A DNA stretch of 64,000 nucleotides from an uncultured Nitrospiraceae bacterium (GTDB lineage: Bacteria; Nitrospirota; Thermodesulfovibrionia; Thermodesulfovibrionales; SM23-35), in NCBI GenBank assembly GCA_963727775.1, contig CAVSHB010000002.1, positions 352,001 to 416,000 of the forward strand. The letters are read 5' to 3'. The translations under genes were made by a program, and so were the position numbers. Shown in pieces: positions 5,940 through 43,403 of the stretch. The notes beneath the pieces were generated by a model. That model saw nothing but the letters and a program-made list of their open reading frames with translations, ran no database searches and was not told the origin of the DNA. Positions within the stretch are counted from its first letter, which is position 1. Every line of letters starts with the position of its first letter.

Positions 5940-5940
5940 A

Positions 5941-6552
5941 GTGGCCTTAAAAATTAATATCAACGTTAAGAAGTTACCTTTATACGCAAAAGTATTATTA
6001 GCCGTAGCGCCGGCGGTTATTATCATTGCGGTTGTTGTTTTTCTTTTGATTCTGCCGAAGAACAAGGAAATTAAGAACTTTGAAATAAAAATATCGGCGC
6101 AGGAAAATGAAATAGCAAAAAACCAGGCAAAGGCTGCAAAACTTCAGGAATTGACCCTGGAGAACGAGAGACTCAGAAAAAGGCTTGATGAGTTAAAATT
6201 GCAATTGCCGGAAGAAAAAGAGGTTTCTACCTTACTTAAACAGGTATCTGACCTATGTATCAGGTCCGGTCTTAAAATAGCGCTATGGAAGCCGGAACAG
6301 AAGAAGACCCATCCAAGCGGTATAGTTTATGAAATTCCGGTGAGGGTCGAGCTTTCGGGCAGTTACCATAACCTCGGTCATTTTTTCAGCAGCCTGACAA
6401 AGTTCAACAGGATAGTAAATATTTCTGACATAAAACTCTCTGATCCCAAGCCGGAAAAAGGGAGCGCCGTACTGAAGGTATCATTTATTGCTACGACATT
6501 TTCAGCGGTACCCGATGGAGAGATAGGAAAAGAAAAAGGGAAAGGCAAGTGA
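5941..6552 (+). CDS. pilO: Type IV pilus assembly protein PilO
   Basis: TM plus coiled coil, QLPEEKEV, YEIPV..ELSGSYH..FF...RIVNI. Confidence 0.95.
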   Translation: MALKININVKKLPLYAKVLLAVAPAVIIIAVVVFLLILPKNKEIKNFEIKISAQENEIAKNQAKAAKLQELTLENERLRKRLDELKLQLPEEKEVSTLLKQVSDLCIRSGLKIALWKPEQKKTHPSGIVYEIPVRVELSGSYHNLGHFFSSLTKFNRIVNISDIKLSDPKPEKGSAVLKVSFIATTFSAVPDGEIGKEKGKGK

Positions 6553-7064
6553 TAAGAAATACGGTATACCTTCTCTTGGTTATTTTTTTCTTTATCCCCT
6601 TTATCGGGTGTCAGAAAGAGACTGCTACAGGCAAAAAGCCGATGGCTGAAAAAGTTAAATCATTAGAAGCTAAGCCGGCTGCAACAAAGGCCGACGAGAC
6701 AAAGAAGGTTGAACAAGAAGAATACAAATATGATTCAAAAGGAAGAAGAGACCCTTTCCTTTCCCTTGTAGTTACAACAAAAGAAAAACCTACAAAGAAA
6801 AGAGGGGCGAGCCCTATCGAAAGTTTTGATATCGACGAAATACAGTTGTTGGCGATTGCATGGGACCATAATAAATATTATGCATTAATAATGCTTCCCG
6901 ACAAAAAAAATTATACTATTTCAGAAGGGATGACGCTCGGACTGCAGGGCGGAAAAGTATACAAGATAAACAACGATACCGTAGTAATCAGAGAATATGT
7001 GAAGGATTATAAGGGAGAAATGAAGCCAAGAGATTCAATATTGAAACTCCATAAGGGGGAATGA
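6549..7064 (+). CDS. pilP: Type IV pilus assembly lipoprotein PilP
   Basis: Lipobox FIGC, YDSKGRRDPF, SPIESFDIDE. Confidence 0.93.
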   Translation: MIRNTVYLLLVIFFFIPFIGCQKETATGKKPMAEKVKSLEAKPAATKADETKKVEQEEYKYDSKGRRDPFLSLVVTTKEKPTKKRGASPIESFDIDEIQLLAIAWDHNKYYALIMLPDKKNYTISEGMTLGLQGGKVYKINNDTVVIREYVKDYKGEMKPRDSILKLHKGE

Positions 7065-9457: not shown

Positions 9458-9504
9458 CGGAAATATAAAATAGGAATATTGAAAAACTAAAAATAGGGGG
9501 CAAG

Positions 9505-9942
9505 ATGAGAGGCAAGATTTTAATATTAACTGTCTGCTGTTTGGCGCTCAGTTTGATCTTATGTGGCTGCGGAGGAGGGAGTGCACCGCCTGGTTCGGTG
9601 ATCACGATAAACCCTACTACTAATACAGTCACTGATGGAAGCACTGAACCATCATCTCATACCCTTTTTTATACTATCTCACTTGTGGATTCTACCGGCA
9701 GACCTTTGGGACATACCCGAATTTCGCTCTCGTTCATATGGGCAAATCCGGACGTATACAATGTAGTGCAGCTTTTTGACGGTACTACGCCGAAAAAATC
9801 TCCATTTGATGCGGAGACAGATGATTTTGGCGCATATATACTGCGTTTAGATTTTCAGTCCGGCGGTGGGCTAAGTTATACAGGCAATGTAGAAGCGCGT
9901 TCCGGCGCATCATTCGTAAGCTCGACGCTTACGGTACAATAA
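9505..9942 (+). CDS. Hypothetical lipoprotein, beta-rich/Ig-like
   Basis: Lipobox LCGC after hydrophobic signal; alternating beta-strand pattern. Confidence 0.7.
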   Translation: MRGKILILTVCCLALSLILCGCGGGSAPPGSVITINPTTNTVTDGSTEPSSHTLFYTISLVDSTGRPLGHTRISLSFIWANPDVYNVVQLFDGTTPKKSPFDAETDDFGAYILRLDFQSGGGLSYTGNVEARSGASFVSSTLTVQ

Positions 9943-9988
9943 CGATATTTACAGGTTAGAGATAGATATGGCAGATATATAGCATATT

Positions 9989-12900
9989 ATGAACTGGAGG
10001 GATAAATTGAAAAATACAGATTACCAAATGCAGAGGGGAGGACATAATTTTGCAGGCCATAGGCTGAGAGCGGCTGCGAGCATATTGCTATTTATTATTT
10101 GTTCCGTTTCTTTAAGCGGATTATACGGCTGTTCGGGGGATCATTCGCCTTCGAAGGCGTCCACTGTTGTGGGTGTTGAGAATATAGACGGCAAGGTGAA
10201 GATAGCCAAACTCGTCGGATCCCAAATCCCCATTGCCAATGGATTAGGCGATCAGCAGAACCCGCATGTCATATACCTCCCGAATAAGGACCTCTGGTTT
10301 ACGGTTTATGAGGACTGGGGCAACCTGAGTTCAGGCTCGGACATTAAGGGACGTTTTTTGAAAAATGACGGTACGTTTTGCGGTAGTGAGGTGACTATTA
10401 CCAATGCGCAAGGCGACCAGACAGCCCCATGGGCTGCATACCGTGAAAAGGATATCCTTGCATCTCCAACAGGGCACGACACGATAGTTGTGACGTGGCA
10501 GGATACGAGAGGGACCGGTACCGGAGGCTATGTTTATTACAAGGCAATTAATATCGACAGCCCTGCTTTTAATGTGAATGACTGTTCAGGTTCTTCCCTG
10601 GGAAGCGATACCGCGATATTATATCACCAGATTTCTCAATATGTAGACACGACTCCAGCCCCGGTGACATCAACAGTCACAGCTACGCAGACTATTGCTC
10701 TTGGAGATGGCAAGACAACTGCGTTTATTGCAACTCTAAAAAATACGCCCATAGTGCCGACAAGCGTTAACGTTACTGCTGGAAGTATTAGTCTAAATGA
10801 TACAGGTGGTTCCAGTGGCCTCAACCAAACTTCTCCACCTCCAACATGTGCATTCGGCACGGTAGATTATTCGACCGGTGCTTTGACACTTAACTTCTCT
10901 ACTACTGGTCTATGTACTGCACCTGCTTTCGGCACACCGATAATAGTAAGTTATACATATATTGCTACTACACCGTCGCCATTTTCAGTTGCTACTTCTC
11001 CGCTGGGTGATACCCTCCTTTCAAGGAAATTACCGAGAATCAGCTATGATCCGGGGAGGGACAGGTTCTGGGTTGTATGGAATGAGTCACGAAGCACATT
11101 GCAGAGGATATCCGAGATATGTTTCGGTCTCGCTATCGCCACGTGGGATTTCGGAGATAATTCATCTTTCCCTGGCTATGTGATGCTCGATGGCGTAACA
11201 TTGGCGGAACTGCCGAACGATATAGGGACTAATGGCGCAGATATAATAAGGAACGGGCTGGTGAGAACGAACCGGATTATCAGCGCCGGCCTTGCTGCAT
11301 TGACAGAGACGTATGATTACGAATTTTTTACCGGACTCAACAATATCGCCAATGCAACCGATACAACAGGACCTGAGACCTTTATGGCATGGGAAGGCAC
11401 AAGGCAAAAAGGGGAAATGGTCTGTACATGTACCGATAAGAACGGCAACGGCGTCTGCGACACGGGTGAAGTCATAACTTCTACATTTACTGTATCTCCT
11501 TTTGATGATGGGTTCAATCATGCATACGGCCTTTTTGATAAGGAAATTTCCAAAACTTCCATACTTTCGAAGAGACTGGATACCTCGAATACTACAACAG
11601 CTCATAATCCCGCTATAGGCTTTGATCCTGTAACAAAGAGATTTCTTACAGCATGGGAAGATCTGCGCGACGGTGCGACCAAAAAGATATGGGGGCAGCT
11701 TGTTTTTTCGGGCGGCGGCCTCTATAACGGAAATTTTCTTATAAGCTTCCAGGATACTACAGGCAGCGGAAAGCAGGACGCCAATATAGCGAGTTCAAAC
11801 CAGACAAAGCCTTTCATATCATATGACTCAGTGAACCAGAGGTACTTTGTTGCATGGGAGGACGGCAGAAACGGGACTGTATCACTGGAAAACCTTGATA
11901 TTTTTGGGCAGTATGTGGATACAGAGGGTTCTTTACGCGGAACGAACTATGCCATAACAACAGCGCCTTCAAACCAGTTAAGTCCGGCCATTGCTTATAA
12001 TTCAAAGGAGAATCTTTTTCTTGCCGTCTGGAAAGACGCGCAGAATAACTCCATACCATTCGAAGGCTCTGACATATACGGCCAGAGGTTTTCCTTAGGC
12101 CAGCCGCAACTGACGCTTTTAAACCTAGATAATACGACGTTGTCGCCGCCCCTGCTCAACTTCGGATCTGTTACGGTCGGGCAGTCTTCTACAATGTCGT
12201 TTAAGGTAAGAAACACCGGAGATACAAACCTCAAGATAGACTGCCTGTCACCTTTCCCTGCGGGTTCTCCTTTTTCCCACCAGACCCTGACTTCGGAACT
12301 TCAGACATGTGAAGGCACGTATGCTTCGGGTACGTTTCTTCAGATTATCCCTGGGGCGGAGCTTACATTTACGGTGCAATTCTCGCCAGCGTCTCAGAGC
12401 ACCTTTACTTCAAGTTTTACTATCCAGTCCGACGGAGAGATTCAGACCGTAAACGTTCAGGGTGGAGGAGTGACGCCGAGCATTGTCGTAAGCTCAAACA
12501 ATATTACATTTGGCAATGTGCATGTCGGACAGAGCACAGACCGGCCACTGAGGATAACCAACAATGGGACTGTCAGCTATCAGATAACGAACATTACAGG
12601 TGTAAGTGATCCATTCAGCATCGTATCGCCTCCGACATTCCCTCTGACCCTGAACGCCGGACAGTTTTTGGACCTGACTTTGCGTTTTACTCCTTCACAA
12701 TCAGGCGGTTTCAACGGCCAGATGAATATCCAGACGAACCTCCAGGGAGTCGGCCAGACAGTGCAACTCTCAGCCACCGGTACAGCGCCTGTATTATCTG
12801 TTTCAACAATAAGTCTTGATTACGGGGCTATAACTGTAGGTACTAACTCCGACCAGAATATAACCCTCAGCAATACAGGAAATGAGATCCTCACTATAAA

Positions 12901-15900
12901 TACGCTCAGCATTCCGGGCAGTTCAGGGTTCAGTGTTGTCGGCGCCGTATTGCCTATCAGCATCAGCCCGGGCAGTTCCCAGCCGATTACCGTAAGGTTC
13001 TCCCCGACTGATGTAGTTAGTTACAGCAGCGCATTGTCCATCCAGAGCAATGGAGGCAACCAGACAGTAAATTTGGCCGGGCAGGGCGCGGGAGGGAAGA
13101 TTTCGGTGTCTCCGGCCCAGGTGGACTTTCAGACCGTTGCAGTCGGCGCGTCAAAGACCGTAGCCGTCACTGTTTCAAATACGGGAAATGCGCCGATGAG
13201 CATAACGGGAATCACAAGCCCGCCTCTATCTACGCCGTTCAGCCTGATATTTACCGGCACGCCCACAATACAGCTTTTGCCTGGCACAAGCTATACAATT
13301 CTGGCAGTGTTCAGCCCTACAGCCGAAGGCACATTTAATAACAATACTTTTGTCGTCTCTACAAATGCGGTCAACACTTTAACAGGCGAAACTATAAAAG
13401 GCCAAGCGACGATTAAACTTCAGGGTGCTGCCGTAGTGCCGAAAGTTATTATTACCCCATCGTCGGTTGTTTTCCCTGATACCGCTGTGAACCAGATACA
13501 GTCCACCAATATTTCGATTAAGAATAACAGCCCTATCCCGGTCAAAATAAATGCTTTCAGTTTGCCTCAATCAGCATCTTTTGGTACGCTTTTTCAAGTC
13601 TTTAATATGTCGAGTGGGTCCCCTGTTTTATTGAAAGCAACCGATACATTTACCTTGCAGCCAGGTACGACATTGAATTTCGTGATAACGTTCCAGCCGC
13701 CTCAAACAGGTACTTTTAGCTCTACTTTCGGGATCCTTTTCGATTTCGCTTTGTCGCCGACTTATGTGCAAATAAGCGGGACTTCATCGGCGAGCATGAG
13801 CGTGACGCCTGCAGGCAGTGTCCTCGATTTCGGAACTGTTAAAGTCGGATCAACGAAAGACTTGGGCGTCACTGTTGCAAATACCGGTAAGTCAGTATTT
13901 AATTATCAGATTATAGGGTTGACTTCACCTTTTGTTGAGCCCATTTTTGTCTCTCTTCAACCAGTATCTCCGGGGCAACAGGACAGTCAAACAATTAGCT
14001 TCGCTCCTTCAGCGCGCGGGACATACCAACAGACATTGACTATTATTACTGACCAACAGGGGCTTAGCCAGACAATAACAGTGAAAGGGCAGGCAGTAGC
14101 GCCTATCCTGAGGGTCGAGCCTCTGAGTGTAGATTTCGGTTCGGTAACAGTTGGGTCAACTGCAACGCAAAACATCACACTATTTAACGATGGTGACGGG
14201 GACATGAATATCACAAGCTGCGGCTCTCCTCCTGACGGTTTTTCAATAAGCACATGTCCGTCTACCATACCTGCCGGTGCGAACGCGAAGCTGACTATTA
14301 CGTTCAAGCCGACAGATGCAATAGTGAATTCCGGGACAATGGATATTCAGACCGATGGAGGGACTAAGACTATTACTCTAACAGGAACAGGCCAGGGAGG
14401 AAAGATAAGCCTTTCTCAGGAGCAGATCGACTTCGGGACAGTAGCTCAAAATGCAACCGGCACAATCCCGTTAACCGTTACAAACACAGGCAATGGGCCT
14501 TTGAATATCACGAACATAACAAGTCCTACATCGCCCTTCAGCGTTAGCTTTGTAGGTACGGCACCGATAAAACTTCTGCCCAATACAACTTTTACAATTA
14601 ATGTCAACTTCAATCCGATAACTGCAGCTAATTATAGCTCGTCGTTTGTAATACAGACGGACGGGATTAACGGCAACAAAACTGTCAACCTTCAGGGCAC
14701 AGGTGTGTTACCGGCTATCAGCGTAAACCCTTCGCCTATAGTATTCACCGATACAGGCGTCGGCCTAACCCAGTCCCAAAATCTTTTTATCAAAAACAAT
14801 GGGACGCTGCCTGTTACCATAACGAGCTTTGATTCCCCTATTGCGCCATTTACGATTTCAGGGTTACCTACAGTGCCGTTTTCACTTAACGCCGGCGCAA
14901 CGTTAAGTCTTGTTGCGCAGTTTGCTCCGACGACTGCAGGGAGTTTCAGTTCCTCGCTTGGTATCCTTTTTGATACTGCGACGATGCCGACACTTGTCAA
15001 CATGACCGGCACTTCTTCAAATCCGGCAGGTAATATAATCTTTCAGCAGGGAGGTTCACTGATAACATCCGTGGGCTTTGGCAATGTACTGAAAGGGACT
15101 CCGAGCACAACACATCTAAGTATAATGAACACCGGCTCAATAACAAGATACGTCAATACTGTTACTCTGTCAGATCCTGCTTTTATGACGACTCTGAATG
15201 CACCGTTTACTTTAAATAGCGGAGAAACAAAATATTTTGATGTGATCTTCAATCCTACAGCGATACAGTCTTACTCTGCTACTCTGACATTGACGGATGC
15301 ATCGAATAATACGCAGCAGTTAAGCCTCACCGGGGCAGGTTCGTCGATCAGCGTAGGAGTCGATCCAGACTTTCCAGGGACAGTAACCTTCTTTACGGCG
15401 CTTACTTCATCACAACTGCCGGTATCCTCAAAACCGGCCAATTTCAATATCAGCAACGCGGCAGAATTTGTGATAGAAGGTGTTAATCCGGGTTCTTCGG
15501 TCTATGTGAGCATAACATTTAGTAGCCTGCCGGCGTCCCCTGTCTTCTATAAGGTCGTTGGGAACACATGGACAAAGCTTACTGACTATAGTCTGCAAAA
15601 TAATGTGCTGACCTACAGCATAACTGATAAGATCAGCATAACTGATAATAATGGTCCATTTGACAGTGACCCGACACCTGGTAAAATACAAGATCCGATT
15701 GTTGCCGGCAGCACAACCGGCGGTGGCGGCGGCGGTGGTGCTATCCATAACTCAGGCGGCGGCGGTTGTTTCATAGCAACGGCAGCATATGGCTCATACC
15801 TTGACGCGCACGTAATGGTCCTCAGGGAATTCAGAGACAAGTATCTTTTGACCAATGCGCCGGGTAAAATATTTGTAGCGCTGTATTACAAATATTCCCC

Positions 15901-16063
15901 GCCTGTAGCTGATTTTATCAGGGAGCACGAAATGTTAAGGACGGCGACAAGATTTGTACTGACGCCGATAGTTTATGGCGTAAAATACCCGTTGCCGGCA
16001 ATGGGGTTACTGTTCTTCAGCATCTCATTTTTCGGCATCAGGAAACGGAGGAGAGATTCTTAA
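9989..16063 (+). CDS. Giant surface lipoprotein/adhesin: propeller-like N-region, ten ASH/choice-of-anchor D Ig-like repeats, choice-of-anchor U-like domain, CFI-box-CTERM
   Basis: LYGC lipobox; repeated F..(A/V)WED blades; ten (D/N)FG.V..G....(I/V).N.G units; [29 protein letters not shown]...LREFRD...YYKYSPP then TM and RKRRR; true start may be downstream. Confidence 0.85.
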
Positions 16064-16082: not shown

Positions 16083-16391
16083 TTGATTGTAATCATAGGG
16101 CTTGTACTTGCCGTCTCGGCTTGCGGCTCAAAGGAAGGCTGCCCGACAAAAGAGACTGTAACGTCGGCAGTGAAGAATATAATGCCTGTGCGCTTCGAGA
16201 TAGTGAGTATCGCGGAAACCAGTCAGATACACGGGATGTGCGAGGTGGTTATTAAAATAGACAAAGAGCCCGTGATTTTTTACACAGACAAGACCGGCGG
16301 ATATTTCTTCTCTGGGAGCATGGTTTCAACAAAGGACAAGACTGATATCACTCAGAAACGCCGGGAGTATTTTAAAACAAAACTGCAATGA
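16083..16391 (+). CDS. Small lipoprotein resembling the DsbC N-terminal (dimerisation) domain only
   Basis: Lipobox VSAC; I.GMCEVVI...IFYTDKTGGYFFSGSMV...DIT pattern; no thioredoxin CxxC domain. Confidence 0.65.
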   Translation: MIVIIGLVLAVSACGSKEGCPTKETVTSAVKNIMPVRFEIVSIAETSQIHGMCEVVIKIDKEPVIFYTDKTGGYFFSGSMVSTKDKTDITQKRREYFKTKLQ

Positions 16392-16443: not shown

Positions 16444-17322
16444 TTGAAATCAAGCCTTTTTTCACATAGAAATATTTTTTATCTGAACGCGCTCGTAGGT
16501 GTAGTCCTTGTCATAGCAACTCTTTTTTTTATGCGGGATATTATTTCAGTCTATGCCGGCAAACAAAAAATCCTTAAGAGAGATGTCCCGGCGTCTAAAA
16601 ATACGCTGACCGGCAGGCAAAAAATGCAGCTTACAGATTATGCTTCGATAATGAAAAATAACCCTTTCGGTTTTCCGGGAGGTGAATTAAAGCCCCTAAC
16701 AGCTTCTTCGACGGAGGCCGATACCCGGCGTGCAGATATTCATCTCCTCGGCACGATAGTAGGACCGAAGGACCTCAGTTACGGCGTTTTTAAAAGCAGC
16801 TCAGGACCGCAGGAACTGTTCAAGGTCGGAGACTCTGTATTCGGTATCGGTAAATTGAGCAAAGTGGAGAGAGACAAGGTGATTATAAGACAGGGGGGTA
16901 AGGCAATAGAGGTACCCATTGAAGATGTGAAGGTGGAAGAGATTAAACAACCGGGCGCCGGAGGGTCACCATTCACCTCTTCTTTTGCCCAAAAGGTGGG
17001 GAAAGATACATATATGGTCGACCAGCGGAATTTACAACAGGCGATCGCCAACCCCGGACAGATAATGACTGACGCAAGGCTCAGGCCGAATACTGTTAAC
17101 GGTAAAGAGGAAGGGTTTATGTTGAGCGAAGTCAGGCAGGGAGGGATTTACAATAGCCTCGGGCTTCAGAACGGCGACGTGCTTTTGAGGATCAACGAGT
17201 ACGACATATCTAATCCGGAAAGGGCCCTACAGGCATTTACCGCACTGAAAGGCATGGACAGGGTGCAGATTGATTTGATCAGAGATGGAGCACGGATGAC
17301 AATGACTTACCAGATAAAGTAA
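16444..17322 (+). CDS. gspC: Type II secretion protein GspC (HR plus PDZ)
   Basis: N-terminal TM, LLGTIVG HR domain, LGLQNGDVLLRIN PDZ. Confidence 0.92.
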   Translation: MKSSLFSHRNIFYLNALVGVVLVIATLFFMRDIISVYAGKQKILKRDVPASKNTLTGRQKMQLTDYASIMKNNPFGFPGGELKPLTASSTEADTRRADIHLLGTIVGPKDLSYGVFKSSSGPQELFKVGDSVFGIGKLSKVERDKVIIRQGGKAIEVPIEDVKVEEIKQPGAGGSPFTSSFAQKVGKDTYMVDQRNLQQAIANPGQIMTDARLRPNTVNGKEEGFMLSEVRQGGIYNSLGLQNGDVLLRINEYDISNPERALQAFTALKGMDRVQIDLIRDGARMTMTYQIK

Positions 17323-17336: not shown

Positions 17337-19589
17337 ATGAAAAAGTTAGCGATCTTTGTTCTCATGGTTTTTTCTGTTTTTATCCTCAGGTCAAATGCGT
17401 CATGCGCTCCTGTAAATGCTCCTGCAGCAACGGCTGATCAAACCGCGGAAAAATCTGCTGAAGCGTCTCTGAGTGAAGTCTCCGTCCGGGAATCGGTCCA
17501 TCCTGAGAAAGAGGGCATCAAGGACAAGAAAGTTACTTTTAACTTTGTTGATGTTGATCTCTCGGCCATAACAAAATTTATCAGTGAGATCACCGGTAAA
17601 AATTTTATCTTCGATGAAAAAGTAAAAGGCAAGATAACAATAATCGCTCCTTCAAAGCTGTCGGTCCAGGATGCATACAGCCTTTTTACTTCAGTGCTGG
17701 AGCTTAAAGGGTTCACGATTGTTCCTTCGGGCGTCGCCGTATATAAGATTGTGCCCGCCATAGAGGCGAAACAACGAGGTATGCAGATTTCTACGGGAAG
17801 AGTTCCTGTTAATGAAAGTTATACGGCGCGATTGATTCCCATAAAATATATATCTTCCGACGACGCGCTCCGTTTCCTTCAGCCGATCGTTTCAAAGGAC
17901 GGCCATATATCCGCCTTTGGACCGGGAAACCTCTTGTTGGTGATTGATTCAGGACTGAACCTGGAGAAGGTCCGCTCCATTCTTGAAGTGATAGACCAGC
18001 CTTTATTGAGGGAGGAGCCCGAGATTGTTCTCCTTAAATATGCGAGTGCGGAAGTTATCGCGAGGATATTAAACGAAGGAATAAGTTACGGCAAAAGCAG
18101 ACCGGGATCAGGGCAAGTGGCCAAATCCGAAGAAGTGAAGGTAGTCCCCGACCAAAGGCTGAACGCCGTAGTTATATTCGGAGATAAACTCGTGAGGGAG
18201 TCGATTAAGGGGCTTGTCGCCCTTCTTGATATCCCCGCACCCGGGGCGCAGGGACGTATAAACGTATGTTTTCTCGAAAATGCTGATGCGACGGAATTAT
18301 CAAAGGTCTTGGAAGGGATGTTGAAAGGGACCCCGGTAAAACAAACCGCTACAGCCGCAGCGGGGAGCCAGGCTGTTACGCCCTTTGAAGCCGGAGGAGG
18401 AATAGTCATTACGCCTGATAAGGCAACAAATTCACTTGTGATAGTTGCATCGCCCGCCGACTACCAGAATCTTATCCAGGTAGTAAAACAGCTCGACCGC
18501 AGAAGGAAACAGGTTTACGTCGAAGGAATGATTGTAGAGGCATCGATTGATAAAGTGCAGGATCTTGGATTGAAATGGAGGATTACCGCCCAAAAAGGAG
18601 GAGCTCCTGTAGCAATAGGCGGTTTTGGAACTATCGACTCCTCTTCCGTACAGGGTATCCTTTCCGGTCTATCCGGTATGACCGTCGGTGGTATGGGAAA
18701 CTTTATCAATGTTCCTTTTACAACGGTCGGGTCGGATGGCACAGTCACAAATTCGACCCTTACAGTTCCCGGTTTTTCAGCGTTGTTCAGCATGCAGGAA
18801 TTCAAGGATGCAATTAATGTCCTTTCAACACCGCAGATCCTGACGTCTGATAATAAAGAGGCGGAAATAATTGTCGGCGAAAACGTGCCTTTGATTTCCA
18901 AGCAAGAAGCTAATGCGGCACAACCGCAAGCTCTCTTTACCGATATAGAAAGAAAAGATGTCGGTGTCATCTTGAAGCTTACTCCGCAGATTACGGAAGG
19001 TGATTATGTGAAACTTGATCTCTATCAGGAGATTACAGCTGTCGAACAGGGACAGGCAAATATTATAGCTACAGTGGGCCCGAACTTGTCAAAACGCTCA
19101 ACAAGGACTTCTGTAGTTGTAAAAGACAATCAGACAGTTATTATCGGCGGGCTCATACAGGAAAGGGTTGAAGAGACTGTGACCAAGATCCCTTTCTTAG
19201 GAGACATACCGGGGCTTGGGCTGCTTTTCAAAAACAAATCAAAAGAGAAAACGAAAACGAACCTGCTCGTATTTTTGACGCCGCATATTGTGAAAGAAGC
19301 GGAACAGCTTGCGAAACTTACAGACAGGAAAAAAGTTGAATTTGCGAGGACTGAGGACACGTACATACAGGGAGAGTTGCTTGTGAAGTTCAGGGAAGGA
19401 ATTACCGGAGAGAGGATGACCGAAATACTCTCCGGCGAAGGGGCAACTGTGATTTCTTTATCAAAGCTCCAGGGACTTTACCATATAAGCCTGAAGAAAG
19501 GGCAGGATGTTGAAGATGCCGTCAAGATATTCAATGCCTATAAAGAAGTGGAATACGCGGAACCTAACTATATGATGAAGATAAAATGA
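17337..19589 (+). CDS. gspD: Type II secretion secretin GspD with C-terminal subtilase propeptide-like domain
   Basis: FNFVDVDL..ITKFISEITGKNFI, QVYVEGMIVE, ERKDVGVILKLTPQI, KIPFLGDIPGLG.LF; tail GELLVKF...EVEYAEPNY. Confidence 0.96.
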   Translation: MKKLAIFVLMVFSVFILRSNASCAPVNAPAATADQTAEKSAEASLSEVSVRESVHPEKEGIKDKKVTFNFVDVDLSAITKFISEITGKNFIFDEKVKGKITIIAPSKLSVQDAYSLFTSVLELKGFTIVPSGVAVYKIVPAIEAKQRGMQISTGRVPVNESYTARLIPIKYISSDDALRFLQPIVSKDGHISAFGPGNLLLVIDSGLNLEKVRSILEVIDQPLLREEPEIVLLKYASAEVIARILNEGISYGKSRPGSGQVAKSEEVKVVPDQRLNAVVIFGDKLVRESIKGLVALLDIPAPGAQGRINVCFLENADATELSKVLEGMLKGTPVKQTATAAAGSQAVTPFEAGGGIVITPDKATNSLVIVASPADYQNLIQVVKQLDRRRKQVYVEGMIVEASIDKVQDLGLKWRITAQKGGAPVAIGGFGTIDSSSVQGILSGLSGMTVGGMGNFINVPFTTVGSDGTVTNSTLTVPGFSALFSMQEFKDAINVLSTPQILTSDNKEAEIIVGENVPLISKQEANAAQPQALFTDIERKDVGVILKLTPQITEGDYVKLDLYQEITAVEQGQANIIATVGPNLSKRSTRTSVVVKDNQTVIIGGLIQERVEETVTKIPFLGDIPGLGLLFKNKSKEKTKTNLLVFLTPHIVKEAEQLAKLTDRKKVEFARTEDTYIQGELLVKFREGITGERMTEILSGEGATVISLSKLQGLYHISLKKGQDVEDAVKIFNAYKEVEYAEPNYMMKIK

Positions 19590-19673: not shown

Positions 19674-21194
19674 ATGGAACATATTGAAGTTATAAAAGAG
19701 GAAGACATAGAGGTTTCCATCCTTAAGAATATCCCGCTTAGTTTTGTAAAAAACAACCAAATATTTCCTATGAAGATAGATAATTCCGAACTGGTTGGAG
19801 CTGTTGCCGACGATAAGGGGGTGCTTGCTCTCTCTGAGGCGTCGAAAATGTTCGGCCTGAAGCCGCGGGCGTTAAAGGCGTCTGCCGGGGTCATCCTCGA
19901 CGCGATCAACAAGTTCTACGGAAACATGGGGTCTGCTGAAGAAGTGATGGATACCATAACTGGAGAGGACCTTTCCTCCGTTGCCACGGCATTTGAGGCC
20001 CCCAAAGACCTGCTTGAATTGACTGAAGAGGCGCCTATCATAAGGCTCCTTAATGCCTTGCTTCTGCAGGCAGTCAAAGAGAGGGCAAGTGACATCCACA
20101 TCGAGCCTTACGAAAAAGAGCTCGATGTAAGACTACGCGTCGATGGTGTGCTTCATAAGGTGCTGACACCGCCGAAGATCATTCAAGATGCATTAATCAG
20201 CAGAATAAAAATTATGTCCAATCTTGATATAGCGGAAAAAAGATTACCACAGGATGGAAGGATACGGCTTCTGCTCGGGGGAAGAGATATAGACATCAGG
20301 GTATCGGTCATCCCCACTTCTCATGGCGAGCGGGCGGTGCTCAGACTATTGGACAGAAAACAGGGCCTTCTGGGTTTATGGGAAGTCGGGTTTGACAAGA
20401 ATGACGAAAAGAAACTCGAAGAATATCTTCGGAGACCCGACGGCATCATACTTGTAACGGGCCCTACAGGCAGCGGTAAAACTACAACCCTCTACGCTGC
20501 ATTGAACAGGATACATACGGAAGAAAAGAACATCATAACAGTTGAAGACCCGATTGAATATCAATTGAAAGGCATCGGCCAGGTCCACGTGAACCCGAGA
20601 ATAGGGCTGACATTCGCGTCGGGACTGAGGTCGATTTTAAGACAGGACCCGGATGTTATTATGGTCGGAGAAATAAGAGACCTCGAGACTGCCGAGATAG
20701 CGATGCAGGCATCTCTCACCGGTCATCTGGTCTTAAGTACCCTTCATACAAATGACGCGCCGAGTGCGCTGGTAAGACTCATCGACATGGGCATAGAGCC
20801 TTTTTTGGTCGCCTCATCTCTGAGTGTTGTTCTGGCGCAGAGGCTTGTAAGGTCAATTTGTCTTCATTGTAAAGTATCTTATAGTCCGTCCGAGCTTGAA
20901 AGGTCTTACTTCAACAAACCGCCTGAAGTTTTATATCGAGGGACCGGATGCGATAAGTGCAGCAATAAAGGTTATTTCGGAAGGATAGGCATATTTGAGC
21001 TCCTTGCAATAGATAATGAAATACGGCCGATGATTACCGATAAGATTGATTCTCAGAGCGTAAAGAACCATGCGCTTTCCAGGGGGATGAAAACCCTTCG
21101 CCAGGACGGTCTCGAAAAGGTCATCGGCGGCGTTACAACCCTTGAAGAGGTTTTGAGGGTCACGCAAAAAGATTATGCCGATATTTCAATATAA
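19674..21194 (+). CDS. gspE: Type II secretion ATPase GspE
   Basis: ASDIHIEP, RLPQDGR, GPTGSGKTTT, LRQDPDVIMVGEIRD, two CxxC zinc-site pairs. Confidence 0.97.
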   Translation: MEHIEVIKEEDIEVSILKNIPLSFVKNNQIFPMKIDNSELVGAVADDKGVLALSEASKMFGLKPRALKASAGVILDAINKFYGNMGSAEEVMDTITGEDLSSVATAFEAPKDLLELTEEAPIIRLLNALLLQAVKERASDIHIEPYEKELDVRLRVDGVLHKVLTPPKIIQDALISRIKIMSNLDIAEKRLPQDGRIRLLLGGRDIDIRVSVIPTSHGERAVLRLLDRKQGLLGLWEVGFDKNDEKKLEEYLRRPDGIILVTGPTGSGKTTTLYAALNRIHTEEKNIITVEDPIEYQLKGIGQVHVNPRIGLTFASGLRSILRQDPDVIMVGEIRDLETAEIAMQASLTGHLVLSTLHTNDAPSALVRLIDMGIEPFLVASSLSVVLAQRLVRSICLHCKVSYSPSELERSYFNKPPEVLYRGTGCDKCSNKGYFGRIGIFELLAIDNEIRPMITDKIDSQSVKNHALSRGMKTLRQDGLEKVIGGVTTLEEVLRVTQKDYADISI

Positions 21195-22350
21195 AGGATA
21201 CAGGACTGACGGGTCTGAAATAGCCGGAACCATCGAAGCGAACAGCCAAAAGGACGCCGTATTAAGGCTAAAGGAATCGGGACTCTATCCAAAGGATGTA
21301 AAAGAAGCAATATATAAAGGCAAAGCAGGCTTTTTCCGCAGGCCCGATATTTCACTCCTTCCATCTACAACAAGACAATTATCCACACTCCTTTCTTCAG
21401 GGGTCACTTTAATGGAGGCGTTAAGTTCCATCTCTGAAGAAAATAAAGGTTTCTGGAAGAATATGTTGGTTGATATTAAAGAACGGGTCGAGGCCGGTTC
21501 AAGCTTTTCAAAGGCATTGGAGGAATATGGAAATATCTTCCCGGAATTTTACGTGAATATGGTTGCCGCAGGAGAGGCAAGCGGGACCCTTGATAAGGTC
21601 CTCATACGCATGGCTGATTTCCTGGAAGACCAGGACAACCTGAAATCAAAAGTGAGAACTTCGATGGTTTATCCCGTCTTCATGATCTGCGTGGGGTTCA
21701 TTGTCCTTTCTTTTTTATTCGCATTTGTCATACCGAAGATTACAAAGATTTTCAAGGACACCGGCAGCGCCCTTCCCCTTATCACAACAATCCTTATATT
21801 TGTCAGTGATATTTTTCAGCGCTACTGGTGGCTTTTGATCGGGTTGGTTATAGGAGGGTTTTACGGTCTCAGGAGGATGAAAGAAAAGAATGCTTTGTTT
21901 ATTGACGGTCTCATTTTGCGGATGCCGGGCAATGTATTGCAGAGCCTTTATTTCGGAAGGTTCACACGGACATTAGGCTTCTTGCTGGAGGGAGGCCTTC
22001 CTGTTCTCAAAGCGCTTGATCTTGCTGCAAAATCAATCGGCAATGAGGTGATCGAGGCGCGGGTGCTCGAAGCCGGGAAACGGGTCGCGGAGGGGGCGAG
22101 GCTTTCTGCATCTCTGGAGGGGTTCCCGCCTGTGCTGTTGCAGCTTATTTCGACAGGGGAGAAAAGCGGGCAGTTGGTCCAAATATTGGGAAATGCGGCT
22201 GACTCGTATGAGGAAGAATTCTCAAGGAGAGTGCAGAAGGCTTTGTCTCTCCTTGAGCCCGGGATGATTTTGGTTATGGGATTCGTCGTAGGGCTTATAG
22301 TTCTCGCTATCCTTTTGCCGATATTCCAGTTGAACCAGCTGATAAAATGA
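21175..22350 (+). CDS. gspF: Type II secretion inner membrane platform GspF
   Basis: TRQLSTLLSSG, AGEASGTLD, GEKSGQL, LEP..ILVMG. Confidence 0.96.
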   Translation: MPIFQYKGYRTDGSEIAGTIEANSQKDAVLRLKESGLYPKDVKEAIYKGKAGFFRRPDISLLPSTTRQLSTLLSSGVTLMEALSSISEENKGFWKNMLVDIKERVEAGSSFSKALEEYGNIFPEFYVNMVAAGEASGTLDKVLIRMADFLEDQDNLKSKVRTSMVYPVFMICVGFIVLSFLFAFVIPKITKIFKDTGSALPLITTILIFVSDIFQRYWWLLIGLVIGGFYGLRRMKEKNALFIDGLILRMPGNVLQSLYFGRFTRTLGFLLEGGLPVLKALDLAAKSIGNEVIEARVLEAGKRVAEGARLSASLEGFPPVLLQLISTGEKSGQLVQILGNAADSYEEEFSRRVQKALSLLEPGMILVMGFVVGLIVLAILLPIFQLNQLIK

Positions 22351-22360
22351 ATATGGTAGA

Positions 22361-22470
22361 AAAGCCGGGTCATCGTATTTGCGCTCATTCTCGTCCCCGA
22401 AAGCTTTCGGGGCCTCCGAGGTTTTCGCTTATCAGCGAAAAAAACCGCTCAAATATTATAACCCGGCTTT
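22361..22470. repeat. Highly palindromic intergenic element (MITE/REP-like or mRNA structure)
   Basis: AAAGCCGGGT/ACCCGGCTTT terminal inverted repeat, TATTTG/CAAATA, perfect palindrome CCCCGAAAGCTTTCGGGG (22395-22412), TTTTCGCT/AGCGAAAA hairpin. Confidence 0.7.
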
Positions 22471-22490
22471 CGTGAAAATAGGAGGAACGA

Positions 22491-22919
22491 ATGAAAAATA
22501 AAGGGTTTACGCTTCTCGAAATTATCGTGGTGGTTTTCATACTAAGTCTTCTGGTGGCTATTGTGGCGCCTAAGATAATCGGTAGGACTGATGATGCGCG
22601 CATTGCAGAGGCCAAGGTCCAGATCAGGAATTTTGAGACGGCACTCAAGCTTTTTAAGATCGACAACGGCTTTTATCCAAGCACAGAGCAAGGGCTTGCG
22701 TCATTAGTGGAAAAACCGAACACAGGACAGATTCCTCAGAAATACAGAGAGGGCGGGTACCTTGAACAGAAAAAGATCCCACTTGACCCTTGGGGCAACC
22801 CCTATGTGTATATATCTCCGGGTGTATACGGTGACTTTGATATCATGAGTTATGGAGCGGATGGAAAAGAAGGCGGGGAAGGCAAGAATGCCGATATCAA
22901 GAGCTGGGATTTGCAATAG
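22491..22919 (+). CDS. gspG: Major pseudopilin GspG
   Basis: KG/FTLLE prepilin site, YPSTEQGL.SLV, DPWGNPYVY, SYGADG. Confidence 0.97.
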   Translation: MKNKGFTLLEIIVVVFILSLLVAIVAPKIIGRTDDARIAEAKVQIRNFETALKLFKIDNGFYPSTEQGLASLVEKPNTGQIPQKYREGGYLEQKKIPLDPWGNPYVYISPGVYGDFDIMSYGADGKEGGEGKNADIKSWDLQ

Positions 22920-23394
22920 CCGCGGGTTCACTCTCCTTGAACTCATCGCTGTAATGTTCATTATTTCTGTGGTTGCGGCCATTGCTCTGCCGTCTTTTAT
23001 CGGGGTTGGAGAAAGCAAAGTCAAATCAGAGGCACGGGAAATGGCCTCAATATTGACTTATCTGAACGATAGCGCAGCCTCAAGGAAAGAGACATTTGTC
23101 ATGAGATTTGATCTTGATAATAATACGGTATTCTGGAAAGGGCCTGAGGGAGAGAAGACAAAAAAGTTTGATGATATGACAGGAGTGACCACTCAAGCGG
23201 CCGGGACCGTCTCCAAAGGAGAACTGACCTTCTTATTCGGGCCGTTTGGAATTGGTGAAAATATCAGTGTTCATATGAGCAAGGGAGACCAGAGCATGAC
23301 AATCACTTTGAACCATTTAAGCGGAAGGGTGAAGATAAAGGATGACGCAGGAAGCAGTGAGGATGAAAACGGGGCCCGCAAAGAAGGGCAATAA
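22888..23394 (+). CDS. gspH: Minor pseudopilin GspH
   Basis: RG/FTLLEL prepilin motif; order after gspG; start uncertain. Confidence 0.85.
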   Translation: MPISRAGICNSRGFTLLELIAVMFIISVVAAIALPSFIGVGESKVKSEAREMASILTYLNDSAASRKETFVMRFDLDNNTVFWKGPEGEKTKKFDDMTGVTTQAAGTVSKGELTFLFGPFGIGENISVHMSKGDQSMTITLNHLSGRVKIKDDAGSSEDENGARKEGQ

Positions 23395-23755
23395 GTTTGT
23401 CCTTGATCCTTCTTTTTTTATTCACCGGGAAAATGGTTTTTCTTTGCTTGAAGTGTTGATCGCTCTTGCGATTGTCGGCGGTCTTTTGGTGACCCTCATA
23501 TATACTTTGAACTATCAGTTGAGTCTCGTGGACAGGCAGGAGGTCATTACTGTCGCGACCTTTCTCGCAAAGAGTAAAATGGCCGATTTAGAAAAGAGTC
23601 CCGAAAATAAGAAAGGGGATTTTGAAACTCCTTACGATGGCTATTCATACGAGACCTCTATTAAGGACTCGCCATACGTCGGCATATCTGAAATTATGGT
23701 TTCGGTAAAAGGAGGCAGGGAAGAGGTAAAATTGAATGAGTTTGTTTTTAAATAA
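23342..23755 (+). CDS. gspI: Minor pseudopilin GspI
   Basis: NG/FSLLEVLIALAI; gene order. Confidence 0.85.
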   Translation: MTQEAVRMKTGPAKKGNKFVLDPSFFIHRENGFSLLEVLIALAIVGGLLVTLIYTLNYQLSLVDRQEVITVATFLAKSKMADLEKSPENKKGDFETPYDGYSYETSIKDSPYVGISEIMVSVKGGREEVKLNEFVFK

Positions 23756-24380
23756 AAATCATCGTATATCTCTCCATACAGCTATTGCCGGGAACGAGCG
23801 AAACGGTGGAGGTTTCACCCTTATCGAAATCCTTGTGGCTTTTACAATTCTTTCAATAGTTCTGGCCGCTGTCTACAGCACTTTTTTCTTGAGCCACAAG
23901 GCAATGGACGGCATGGATGAATACATGTTAAAACTCCGGGAATCACGGAGGGCGATTGACATCCTAAAGCGCGAACTCGATTCTGCTTTCTATCGGCGTG
24001 ACGATCAGAGTACATTGTTTAAGATATATGACAAGGACATATTCGGCAAACAGGCGTCTCAGCTTGCTTTTACGGCTTTTTCAACACTAAGGCCGGGGGT
24101 TTCGAGAATCGTTTATTATATCGAAGATAAAGACGGGAAATTAAATCTTCTTAAGAAAATAGAGTCGCCTTTTCAGAAGGAAGAAACCGACGGGGTGGAA
24201 ATAATAGAGGACCTGGACGCGTTCACCGTTGAAGCAAAATACGGTGATACGTGGGTAAAAACATGGGATGCGGACATGAATAACGACACCCCGGAAGAAA
24301 TCAGAATAAGCCTCTCCGTGATGATAAAGGATAAAAAAATGACTTTGTCCGATGTATCAAAACCAATGGTCAAATCGTAA
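23736..24380 (+). CDS. gspJ: Minor pseudopilin GspJ
   Basis: GG/FTLIEILVA, W.KTWD...P..IRI. Confidence 0.87.
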   Translation: MSLFLNKNHRISLHTAIAGNERNGGGFTLIEILVAFTILSIVLAAVYSTFFLSHKAMDGMDEYMLKLRESRRAIDILKRELDSAFYRRDDQSTLFKIYDKDIFGKQASQLAFTAFSTLRPGVSRIVYYIEDKDGKLNLLKKIESPFQKEETDGVEIIEDLDAFTVEAKYGDTWVKTWDADMNNDTPEEIRISLSVMIKDKKMTLSDVSKPMVKS

Positions 24381-24385
24381 TACAC

Positions 24386-25306
24386 ATGACACAAGGACAA
24401 TCAGATCAGCAAAGTTATATGGCAAACCATAAGGGAATAGCTTTAGTTATTGTCCTTCTGGCATTGGCCCTTATCACCGCCATGGTAGTCGAGTTTTCGT
24501 ATGCAGTATATACCGGCACCAATGATCTTTATAATTGGCGCGATGGCCAGCGCCTCTCTATAATGGCAAGATCAGGAATAAATGTGACTATAAAGTTATT
24601 GCCGTATGTGCTTGCAGAGCAAAAATATTCGCAGGGCGTGATGGAGCGGCCTATAGAGAACCCTTTTGAAGATTTCAATGGAACCATAACAGTGAGGGTT
24701 GAGGATGAGAGTTCCAAGCTCAGCCTGAAATTCTTAGTAGATGATTTCGGGAATCATAATAATGTCGCTTATGATGAATTCAAGAGACTTCTAAGCGTGC
24801 TTTCGTTGAATGAAAAGATTGCGGATAGAGTTGTCGACTGGATTGTGAAAAAGAGAGAAACCGGATTCTCTGCCTCCGGAGAAAACAATAAGCATTATAG
24901 ACTCCGCAGTGTCGATGAACTCCTAATGATAGATGGAATAGACAGGAACGCTTATGATAAATTATTGCCATATGTTACTGTTTATGGGCCGGATATGACT
25001 GATTACTCTATTAATGTTAACGGCGCCGGGAAGCCCTTATTGATGAGCATATTGCACGCCAATGGATCGTTTCCCATAACAGAGGACCGAGCTGATAGAA
25101 TAATTAAATATAGAGAGCTCTCTCCTTTTTTATTCTGGGGAGATTTTAATAATTTTGCAGGGACATCATTTTCAGCAGACCGGATCAAGACTATGGGTAC
25201 AGATTTTTCAATAAAAGCGACCGCCTCTTCCGGCGGAGTAAAAAGGATAATCGAATCAGTTTTAAATACATCAGCCGGTAAAATTGAATACTGGAAGGAA
25301 TATTAA
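24386..25306 (+). CDS. gspK: Minor pseudopilin GspK
   Basis: KG/IALVIVL, EDESSKL, VVDW, SVDEL.MIDG, INVN.A, terminal YWKE. Confidence 0.9.
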   Translation: MTQGQSDQQSYMANHKGIALVIVLLALALITAMVVEFSYAVYTGTNDLYNWRDGQRLSIMARSGINVTIKLLPYVLAEQKYSQGVMERPIENPFEDFNGTITVRVEDESSKLSLKFLVDDFGNHNNVAYDEFKRLLSVLSLNEKIADRVVDWIVKKRETGFSASGENNKHYRLRSVDELLMIDGIDRNAYDKLLPYVTVYGPDMTDYSINVNGAGKPLLMSILHANGSFPITEDRADRIIKYRELSPFLFWGDFNNFAGTSFSADRIKTMGTDFSIKATASSGGVKRIIESVLNTSAGKIEYWKEY

Positions 25307-26370
25307 TGGGCAAGGCTTTGTTTATCGATATAAAGGAAAAAGAACTCAGCACATATCTGTTTGATATCAAAGTCAACAAATATGAAATAGGGGAAATCAG
25401 GAAATATCCCGTCTCTGAAAAATTTGATTTCTCGTTTGACATCGGGACCGAGAAGATTGAAAACGCCTATGTAAGCCTCCCATTGAGCAGCCTGAACTTC
25501 AGGGTCATTGAACTGCCGTTTTCCGATAAAGACAGGATTAGGGAAGTGCTTCCGTTTGAGCTCGACGGGATGATATTGGGCGGGACTGACACAGTAGTCT
25601 TTGACAGTGTGATCGTAGGAACATCCGACGATAAGCAACAGGTGCTTGCGGCATATATTGATAAAAAAGATCTCCGGCATCTGCTCGGAAAATTAAAAAC
25701 ATATCATATTGATCCTGTCTTTATTACGTCATTGGAGCTTAAAAACATTCTGAATGATTTTTCTATGGGAAGTCTTCTTTCCCCTCCTGAGCTTGAGGAC
25801 AAAGACAGGATAGAACTGGCTTCCCGGGAAATAAAAGCCCCAGTGATCGACCTGAGAAGGCACGAGTTTTCATACACACGGGAACGTGAGAAGACAAAAA
25901 AGAAGCTGAGGTTAACGGCTGCGCTTCTGGCGTTGCTTGCGCTTGTTCTGTCCGCAGACTTATTGATGAAGATTGTGTCTGCGCGGAGTGAGGCGGCATT
26001 ATTAAAGAACGAGATGCGGAAACAGTATCAGGAAGTCTTTCCCGGAGAGAAAAATATCATGAATGAGCTTTATCAGTTTAAATCCCATATGAAGGAGTTG
26101 AAAAGTAAAGAGGATATTTTCATTGGCGTTGATCCTCTCAGACTGCTTTTAAGTCTCTCCCGTTTGGAGAAACAAGGTGTTGCTTTCAATGAGATAACTG
26201 CGGAAAAAGGGAATATCACCTTGAAAGGTGAGACTGCGTCCTTAAGCGAAGTCCAGCAGATAAAGGGGAAGCTGGAAAGTATTTTTAATGAGGTGAATAT
26301 ATCCGATTCAAAATCCTCTGCGCAGGGCAGGATGCTGTTTACCATAACAGCAAAGGAGAAAAGGTCTTGA
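25306..26370 (+). CDS. gspL: Type II secretion protein GspL
   Basis: Actin-like cytoplasmic part (ELPF...VLPFELD), IDLRR.EF, one TM, ferredoxin-like periplasmic tail. Confidence 0.85.
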   Translation: MGKALFIDIKEKELSTYLFDIKVNKYEIGEIRKYPVSEKFDFSFDIGTEKIENAYVSLPLSSLNFRVIELPFSDKDRIREVLPFELDGMILGGTDTVVFDSVIVGTSDDKQQVLAAYIDKKDLRHLLGKLKTYHIDPVFITSLELKNILNDFSMGSLLSPPELEDKDRIELASREIKAPVIDLRRHEFSYTREREKTKKKLRLTAALLALLALVLSADLLMKIVSARSEAALLKNEMRKQYQEVFPGEKNIMNELYQFKSHMKELKSKEDIFIGVDPLRLLLSLSRLEKQGVAFNEITAEKGNITLKGETASLSEVQQIKGKLESIFNEVNISDSKSSAQGRMLFTITAKEKRS

Positions 26371-26876
26371 TACCAGCGCTGGTGAAGGACAGAAGGATCC
26401 AGGTTGCATCGAGTTGTTTGATCGCTTTTGTGCTTGCTGTAATGTTCGGAGTGCATTTGCTTTCATCCGAGAGAAAAGAACTCAAACAACTGAATGAACA
26501 GAGAAAAGAAATGCTGCTGCTGAAAGATGAATTCATATCTTTGAAACAGAGAATTAATGTTGTGGAAAGCAAGAAGAACCTGTCAAATGCTCAGGGTATT
26601 GTTCAGGCTGTTGATGAGGTTTTTCTGTCTGTCGGGCTGAAGGATAAGGTCAAGTCGGTTAAATCTACGGGGAAGAGAGAAGTCAAGGACGGATTTGAAG
26701 AAGAGGCCGATATTTACATCGAAAAAGTAAGCATGAATGAAATGGCAAATATTTTTTACAGGATCGAGAACGCGCCGGTTATTCTCACGATCAAAAAAGC
26801 CGCAATAAAAAAATCCTTTGAAAACCCCGAGCTCCTGAACATATCCCTCGCTCTTTCTTTTCTGAAAACGAAGTGA
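26367..26876 (+). CDS. gspM: Type II secretion protein GspM
   Basis: TM plus coiled coil plus alpha/beta domain; order L-M-N. Confidence 0.78.
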   Translation: MIPALVKDRRIQVASSCLIAFVLAVMFGVHLLSSERKELKQLNEQRKEMLLLKDEFISLKQRINVVESKKNLSNAQGIVQAVDEVFLSVGLKDKVKSVKSTGKREVKDGFEEEADIYIEKVSMNEMANIFYRIENAPVILTIKKAAIKKSFENPELLNISLALSFLKTK

Positions 26877-27652
26877 AAAAAATCCTCATTGCACTGGTTT
26901 TTATCATGGTTATTGTCTGTAGCTTATGGATAATGTTCCCTGCAAATTCTATCCAGTCTATTATTGAGGATTCTGTTACGGACAAGAAATTTAATTTAGA
27001 GATCAAAGGTCTTAAAAAAGGGTTGTTTTATAATCTGAGCGCCGACAGTATAATATTGAAGAGCTCCGGCCTAAAGGTAGTCTCCTTAACCGGTATTCAC
27101 GGAAATATCGATCCTATGAGTCTCGCGGTGTTGCGTCCAAAGGTAATGATGAATGGGAATATCGGCGGGGGGAATTTTTCAGGCACTGTCGGTTTTGCAA
27201 AAAACAACGTGCAGGTGAACATTAATTTTAAGCAGGTCGGCATAAATGAGGCGCCGTTTTTCAGCCAAATCGGTATACGCGGCGAAGGGACTGTTTCAGG
27301 TAAATTAGTTATGACGGACAATAAGGGGAATATTGGATTTGTTACGAAAGACGCAAACTTCGAGCAGGCGAAAATCGCCGGGGTCAGTGTGCCGCTGAAT
27401 CTTTTCCATGCTGTTTCAGGCATTGTCGACATAAACGGTAATCTGCTCAGTATTGGTTCTCTCTTCCTTGAAGGCAAGGATATCAGTGCGAGGCTAAAAG
27501 GTATAATAAAAGATACTGGTATGGACCTTAAGATGGAAATAATGCCCGGCAGATCTTTTGCTGAAAATCCATTATTCATTTCCGGACTCGAAAGATATAA
27601 AATTTCTCCGGGATATTATGTAATCCCTCTAAAGGGCAATCTGTCCCTCTGA
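26873..27652 (+). CDS. gspN: Type II secretion protein GspN
   Basis: N-terminal anchor ending in FP, beta-rich body; gene order. Confidence 0.78.
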   Translation: MKKILIALVFIMVIVCSLWIMFPANSIQSIIEDSVTDKKFNLEIKGLKKGLFYNLSADSIILKSSGLKVVSLTGIHGNIDPMSLAVLRPKVMMNGNIGGGNFSGTVGFAKNNVQVNINFKQVGINEAPFFSQIGIRGEGTVSGKLVMTDNKGNIGFVTKDANFEQAKIAGVSVPLNLFHAVSGIVDINGNLLSIGSLFLEGKDISARLKGIIKDTGMDLKMEIMPGRSFAENPLFISGLERYKISPGYYVIPLKGNLSL

Positions 27653-29998: not shown

Positions 29999-30055
29999 TA
30001 GTATTTCTCTGCCGACCAAATTATCCTTGTACCTGTGGTATACTCAAAATACTTT

Positions 30056-31970: not shown

Positions 31971-32095
31971 ATTATAAGCGGAGATTTTTCAGGATCTCTC
32001 TTCGAAACCTTTGAGCCAGTCGTTGTTTAAAGGAAAGACGTGCGTCTTTTGGGACAAATGTCACGCAGCATCTCTAAAATTCCTACGGCGGGAGA

Positions 32096-32566: not shown

Positions 32567-32570
32567 TTAA

Positions 32571-43391: not shown

Positions 43392-43403
43392 GGTGGCTTT
43401 ATA

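Follow-up and report, generated by a model that had tools for sequence, protein, structure and literature searches.

The T2SS secretins with an S-domain (GspD, PulD, EpsD and ExeD; structures 5wq7, 5wln and 6i1x) are among the closest described relatives of the locus analysed here, and the only published roles that we found for secretin C-termini are pilotin binding and ring stability. The GspD of our locus resembles these proteins in its N0-N3 domains, barrel, first S-domain helix and complete gspC-N operon, but has a 75-residue prodomain, predicted to be folded, in place of the pilotin-binding helix. This tail shares the profile, the predicted fold, the E-x-N/D helix caps and the P1 end of subtilase N-terminal prodomains (PF22148; subtilisin BPN', 1spb_P; subtilisin E, 1scj_B; fervidolysin, 1r6v), the small domains with which subtilisin-like proteases block themselves. 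Here, however, the domain closes a protein that is not a protease, is followed by no catalytic domain and carries the signature residues of a detached subfamily. Detached propeptide folds encoded near a protease are represented by the stand-alone inhibitors (POIA1, yeast PBI2 and Arabidopsis SPI-1 of MEROPS I9; SUB1-ProM; TgMIC5), and the tail shares conserved Glu/Asn caps and a non-canonical P2 residue with SUB1-ProM, as far as the accessible part of that report goes (PMC6993865). These stand-alones are small soluble proteins of eukaryotes, whereas here the domain forms part of a multimeric channel in the outer membrane and is a putative inhibitor. Aeromonas sobria ORF2, in turn, is a separate partner with a prodomain fold whose C-terminus binds the active site of the adjacently encoded secreted S8 protease ASP (3wqb), and the available sections of the source describe it as a required chaperone and temporary inhibitor (PMC5638518); ASP lacks a propeptide and needs ORF2 to fold, whereas our S8 protease comes with a prodomain of its own, and its putative partner belongs to the secretin chain. 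The potempins of Tannerella forsythia, such as PotC in the PotC/mirolase pair, are outer-membrane-anchored dedicated inhibitors of genetically linked secreted proteases; in the part of the report that is accessible, PotC, a lipoprotein in its own right rather than a domain of a secretin, inhibits by the standard mechanism through a reactive loop (PMC9890683). By analogy, the tail would work like POIA1, SUB1-ProM, ORF2 or the potempins.

The window, i.e. the whole stretch of 64,000 nucleotides that was analysed, contains gspD within a complete gspC-N run (Table 1), and its product scores 528 bits with TIGR02517 against a cut-off of 351 bits (NCBIfam). The tail begins with YIQGE at position 19362 and is closed by the stop codon at 19587-19589. 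PF22148 matches GspD residues 666-744 with 53-55 bits and the prodomain of the operon's S8 protease with 63 bits (gathering cut-off 21 in both cases; Pfam), and these are the two PF22148 domains of the whole genome, which is 96.8% complete; Inhibitor_I9 (PF05922) was not listed for the tail at E 0.05 (Pfam). BLASTP aligned the two prodomains without gaps at 25/73 identities (E 4e-12), the shared run EVEYAEPNY included. Five residues follow EPNY in the GspD of the window, the last of which falls on P1. The initial annotation, made from the sequence alone, had therefore placed a subtilase prodomain at the end of GspD in the right position and frame, had aligned it correctly by hand and had rightly noticed that the protein stops near the point of propeptide cleavage. 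A true propeptide precedes the catalytic domain of its own polypeptide, and here a stop codon follows the tail; a single chain of secretin, prodomain and S8 was also absent from 9 longer matches, which weighs little. GspD is thus a genuine T2SS secretin, and its tail is a genuine PF22148 domain, yet no propeptide.

Table 1. Features of the secretin and protease locus, in positions of the 64,000-nucleotide window
Feature	Position	Strand	Evidence and remarks
2024-aa choice-of-anchor D repeat protein with CFI-box-CTERM	9989..16063	+	NCBIfam
DsbC_N small lipoprotein-like ORF	16083..16391	+	Pfam; not seen in related loci
gspC with PDZ domain	16444..17322	+	Pfam, NCBIfam NF041515
gspD secretin	17337..19589	+	750 aa; Pfam, TIGR02517 above cut-off
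GspD domain order			N0, 3x Secretin_N, secretin barrel, S-domain helix, prodomain tail; lipobox absent
Secretin beta-barrel domain PF00263	18804..19295	+	GspD residues 490-653; Pfam
First S-domain helix of GspD	19281..19352	+	Residues 649-672; kept, joins barrel and tail
GspD prodomain tail	19362..19586	+	PF22148, BLASTP against S8 prodomain, model, structure matches
EPNY in GspD tail	19560..19571	+	E742/N744 align with the helix caps E69/D71 in the prosegment of subtilisin BPN'
gspE, F, G, H, I, J, K, L, M, N	19674..27652	+	Unbroken run into S8 gene, 9-bp gap
S8 subtilase, 778 aa	27662..29998	+	Lipobox Cys17, own prodomain, D156/H212/S584, Fn3
Native prodomain of S8 (residues 29-103)	27746..27970	+	Pfam, BLASTP
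S8 C-terminus	29867..29995	+	Sorting-signal-like GGGGC, hydrophobic stretch, basic end; sequence

The expectation that the tail adopts an I9/prodomain-type fold is borne out by a predicted model (AlphaFold), in which pLDDT is 85-94 across the domain and falls to ~51 in the S-domain helix (H2-25). Foldseek placed the subtilisin propeptides 1spb_P and 1scj_B at the top, with a best E of only 1.7e-3, while VIA gave a Z of 9.3 to 9fid_D and 3bgo_P (68 residues, rmsd 1.8-2.3), not far above the RRM/ACT folds (Z 7.5-8.4). The best structural matches as a whole were propeptides of subtilisin, furin and fervidolysin together with POIA1 (1v5i_B, Z 8.3), and the ORF2 chain 3wqb_B also matched; the Atlas matches all remained below 0.9 and serve as leads only. 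As a single-sequence query against solved structures the tail returned chance matches only, and a profile search was needed, in which EPNY aligned to E69-E70-D71-H72 of BPN' (chain 1spb_P). In the BPN' prosegment E69 and D71 cap surface helices of the protease, according to the accessible text of that study (PMC6993865). K750, the last residue of GspD (model residue 103), aligns with propeptide residue 77, i.e. P1 (VIA). On the secretin side, the alignment of GspD to 5wq7, 5wln and 6i1x stops at the first, post-barrel S-domain helix; the prodomain comes next and stands at the site of the pilotin-binding C-terminal helix alpha-12, which GspD lacks. Because the tail comes after the S-domain helix, we infer that it faces the periplasm on the outside of the barrel, which makes the docking at the gate that had initially been imagined unlikely.

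The S8 protease at the end of the operon is the sole S8 of this genome. Its catalytic triad (D156/H212/S584) is intact and does not vary across 40 aligned relatives, deseasin MCP-01 (3vv3) is the nearest solved structure, and by register autocleavage is predicted after Y103. The Gly-rich segment with its Cys, for which GGGGGC is the consensus in the S8 alignment A2, is followed by a hydrophobic stretch and basic residues, although no NCBIfam CTERM model matched this C-terminus. Cys-containing CTERM sorting signals (MYXO/JDVT/Synerg) combine a Gly-rich Cys motif, a TM segment and a basic tail, and other CTERM proteins depend on T2SS, as stated in the accessible part of a preprint (bioRxiv 2023.06.07.544157). 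From this dependence, from the gene position and from the co-occurrence described below, the S8 protease would be a T2SS cargo. The choice-of-anchor D protein encoded upstream is a probable second one. A stretch of ~200 aa inserted within the S8 catalytic domain (28754-29386) had no Pfam match above the cut-off. The small DsbC_N ORF was considered as a conserved pilotin and rejected, as it was not seen in related loci. A scan for promoters gave 26 matches, compared with 25.1 in shuffled sequences. The whole T2SS operon lies between pilMNOPQ and aroC (window 4366-16063 and 30035-31291), a slot that in other families holds only S8 and surface proteins. Farther downstream, a 98-aa ORF that we take to resemble a BrnT-type toxin and minus-strand ORFs of 461 and 357 aa that presumably resemble IS transposases occupy 31462-35242, and ORFs at 42711-44717 and 54625-64000 look to us like nitric oxide reductase NorCB and an NADH dehydrogenase operon.

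A search with the C-terminal region of GspD returned 762 matches, and all 120 listed, the window's own included, combine a secretin with PF22148; the homologues named among them are Nitrospirota, Thermodesulfovibrionales included. The fusion is therefore not unique to this assembly (119/119 other listed homologues are fused), and because it recurs in independent assemblies a misassembly is excluded. In the sequencing runs compared, no more than 0.11 of the sampled words were present. Among the 120 listed proteins, at least five residues follow EPNY in every case (5 in 52 and 8 in 53 of them), the E of the motif is present in 120/120 and the N in 119/120. Our phylum sample comprised 251 genomes, with 77 other members of the class Thermodesulfovibrionia, all at least 96% complete; this GspD was found in 39 of the 77 and the tail in 37 of these 39, and outside the class none of the listed matches reached the tail, with 560 weaker matches beyond those listed. 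In a quick tree of 109 secretin cores, for which duplicates, second copies and the incomplete L012, L016, L020, L031, L037 and L054 were left out, all fused forms fall into one 78-row group (SH-aLRT 88). Three tail-less rows are nested in it, as are five Syntrophaceae/Desulfobacterales rows, the position of which suggests transfer. The literature that we searched, outside of which lay most subscription papers and all supplements, held no description of a secretin-prodomain fusion. The fusion is real, conserved and apparently unpublished, and its parts were already known. As a separate observation, secretins with tandem double tails and/or a SPOR domain after the tail are encoded at L117:10140-12950, L022:9821-12646 and L028:1243-3699 and are represented by P0133, P0134, P0148 and P0175.

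The initial annotation saw the tail as a copy of the propeptide of the protease in its own operon, which our data contradict. Ungapped DNA identity between the two is only 98/219, the operon's S8 prodomain ranks 33rd of 69 native prodomains by similarity to the tail, and the nearest non-tail neighbour is a stand-alone prodomain protein for 73/78 tails, albeit in a tree of 81 columns that is too weak for placing origins. Nor is the tail tuned to the propeptide of its own operon, with an identity of 0.32 to the S8 prodomain of the same genome and 0.31 to those of other genomes (39 genomes). On these results we rejected a recent duplication from the operon's S8 gene. Signature residues agree between tails and stand-alone proteins (I25 in 58/78 tails, 54/70 stand-alones and 10/69 natives; Y/F43 in 71/78, 62/70 and 7/69), a comparison that is biased because the stand-alone set was chosen by likeness to the tail. 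The stand-alone proteins consist of a short signal-like N-terminus and one prodomain; the tail profile found 65 of them among 150 listed matches, 31 of them lipobox-like, after 18 short matches, many of them fragments, had been left out of the set, and no NCBIfam model matched these bacterial proteins. The same profile also finds S8 proteases with a second, C-terminal prodomain. In P0152, P0166, P0167, P0182 and P0234 this second prodomain lies at the extreme C-terminus, after a CFI-box-CTERM in the two tested.

Stand-alone prodomain genes are closely associated with S8 genes. Across 79 metagenome loci, an S8 gene lies within 320 bp in 20 of 24 cases, counted after removal of one tail fragment; the other four comprise two ORFs cut by contig ends and two without an adjacent S8. 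The stand-alone gene also adjoins S8 in 5/5 Nitrospirota cases and in 5/6 cases from a 301-genome Desulfobacterota sample (the phylum of G014). Two instances lie upstream of gspC-gspD. In a distant lineage (L282), the stand-alone prodomain, S8, gspC and gspD are four separate genes. In genome G596 (L210:2041-2346), the sixth case of the Desulfobacterota sample, a 101-aa lipoprotein-like stand-alone prodomain that has lost the cap (EPVY) is encoded directly upstream of gspC-gspD; the best GspD match of this genome is unfused, and 40 genomes of its family contained no second case.

The survey of co-occurrence with S8, which the initial annotation had called for, revealed a close S8 (E<1e-35) in 25/39 class genomes that have this GspD, compared with 4/38 that lack it, one of these four being broken by internal stops. 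The S8 gene is adjacent in a minority of fused operons and is often found between pilQ and aroC instead. The E-x-N/D cap is intact in 53/56 fused secretins with a matching S8 in the genome (a set that includes the window, the frameshifted S8 of G024 and the S8 without PF22148 of G032), compared with 9/19 without one (among which six genomes have no S8s but distant ones and another has a fragment). The distant S8s, all without a PF22148 match, belong to G124, G141, G162, G263 and G269 (family f7) and to G210 (family f9). With a matching S8, the E of the cap is kept in 55/56 and the N in 50/56. Where the matching S8 is missing, with four small or fragmentary bins left out, N744 drops from 50/56 to 5/15 and Y740 from 47/56 to 5/15, while the core positions stay hydrophobic. 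Purifying selection also acts on the tails of genomes that lack a matching S8 (dN/dS 0.10-0.36, compared with 0.07-0.54 where one is present). Thus, the fold is kept regardless, while the motif on the protease-facing side tends to erode once the S8 partner is lost. The Fisher p of 2e-5 for cap versus S8 overstates the case because only about four independent events underlie it.

The expected partnership with S8 held in part: the association is positive overall, but 14 of the genomes that encode a fused secretin are without any match to PF00082. The cap is lost in 8 of these 14, among them two genomes found later (G451 with KPVY and G463 with EPHY), and kept in six, namely G252, G087 and G275 (99-100% complete) and three bins of 1.4-2.0 Mb. 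Conversely, the cap is lost despite an S8 in G017, G031 and G150; two of the three are sister to lineages that have lost it, so the cap can go before S8 does. S8 is also retained where the tail is missing (G025, G192) and in genomes that lack this T2SS (G174, G231, G297). In a separate case (L136, G159) the class-typical S8 is in pieces and this GspD is absent, while the genus mates G112 and G283 have both.

Taking sequence, model and distribution together, we consider it rather probable that the GspD tail, a detached subtilase prodomain, acts as a secretin-tethered periplasmic inhibitor of S8, which would bind the mature protease and silence it at the secretion machine. Of the original idea of a propeptide mimic tied to S8, the fold, the P1 end, the class-wide spread and the S8 association stand, and the origin from the operon's propeptide falls. 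In the mechanism that we propose, a stand-alone prodomain gene from an S8/T2SS cluster would have been fused to gspD once, near the base of the Thermodesulfovibrionia, replacing the pilotin-binding helix. Every subunit of the secretin ring would then contribute one module, exposed to the periplasm on the outside of the barrel, beneath the outer membrane. The S8 protease would first cleave and shed its own propeptide, after which the sheet of the tail could dock on two surface helices, with E742 and N744 capping these helices and the C-terminus of the tail entering the active site. Two features of I9-type inhibitors, the helix-capping residues E742/N744 and a C-terminal strand reaching P1, are present in the tail sequence, and a bulky P2 (Ile/Met) and a P1 of Gln/Lys would make it a poor substrate. 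In this way the tail may shield the secretin and the envelope from S8, perhaps concentrating the protease there until export. The protease VesC is toxic in T2SS mutants and retained proteases harm the envelope, as reported in the accessible part of one study (PMC7771236). A more specific version, which we consider less likely than not, is that the secretin ring might be a protease-latency station, in which a ring of propeptide mimics catches the self-activated S8 at the outer membrane and keeps it inactive before passing it on for export.

Inhibition or capture is the best reading of the candidate role, and the other two roles that had been put forward, that of a substitute pilotin and that of a folding aid in trans, are weaker. 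An outer-membrane-anchored S8 lipoprotein that grips the tail and pilots or nucleates the secretin would fit a tail that replaces the alpha-12 pilotin site, the lipobox of the window's S8 and of many relatives, the lipobox-like motif found in 0/75 fused GspD and, in line with the initial annotation, a cluster in which no pilotin family (such as PulS/AspS) was reported among the 17 proteins scanned in Pfam and the 8 in NCBIfam. Several partner S8s (L079, L089-L092), however, lack a lipobox Cys ahead of the prodomain, most partner S8s have a membrane segment at the C-terminus, and autocleavage would leave the N-terminal lipid on the propeptide rather than on the tail-binding domain; with the 14 fused-secretin genomes without PF00082 and the existence of pilotin-independent secretins (PMC6532946), a pilotin role is improbable. 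Still less probable, to a degree that we give it very little credence, is a tail that folds the protease in trans like Aeromonas ORF2: although the ORF2 chain is among the fold matches and ORF2 is encoded beside its S8, ASP lacks a propeptide, whereas the window's S8 and the other full-length S8s read here carry their own prodomain or a prodomain-like region.

It is also conceivable, if unlikely, that a prodomain-derived module now serves the secretin itself, e.g. in ring stability, in shielding against proteases or as a docking site for something other than a protease, with protease binding vestigial or optional. Such structural co-option would account for purifying selection and a preserved hydrophobic core without a matching S8, for the presence of EPNY without PF00082 in G252 and G087, for tails that are doubled or continue into linkers and SPOR domains, and for the cap-less stand-alone of G596 directly upstream of gspC-gspD. 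It does not explain why the cap residues are so well kept where a matching S8 exists and decay where it is absent, or why the free C-terminus never stops short of P1. Moreover, one lineage (L026, L047, L127) lost the tail outright, which indicates that the secretin can do without the tail.

If the tethered-inhibitor reading is right, the channel would carry an inhibitor domain specific to one cargo, which would be a new kind of control over a dangerous enzyme that is secreted and a rare case of a defined secretin-cargo contact, and would bear on two open questions, namely how T2SS cargo is recognised and how cells survive with periplasmic proteases. If the ring were indeed a latency station, protease activation would be coupled to secretion, and in the fusion we would see, in Rosetta-stone form, a widespread and undescribed module of bacteria that consists of stand-alone prodomain, S8 and T2SS. 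The reading would also tie the large family of stand-alone bacterial prodomains to S8 control. Further arrangements of prodomains came up in the same material. Seven anti-sigma-like proteins (weak zf-HC2/anti-sigma match, TM) end in a divergent prodomain-like domain (L140:2474-3103, L141:3599-4207, L142:4289-4906, L143:4467-5099, L150:597-1229, L217:2197-2874 and L219:6268-6873); an S8 gene lies a few genes off in 5/7 of these loci, and the proteins may sense the protease or be cut by it. Finally, G037 encodes a 4935-aa protein (L094:941-15748) with three units of prodomain and S8 in one frame.
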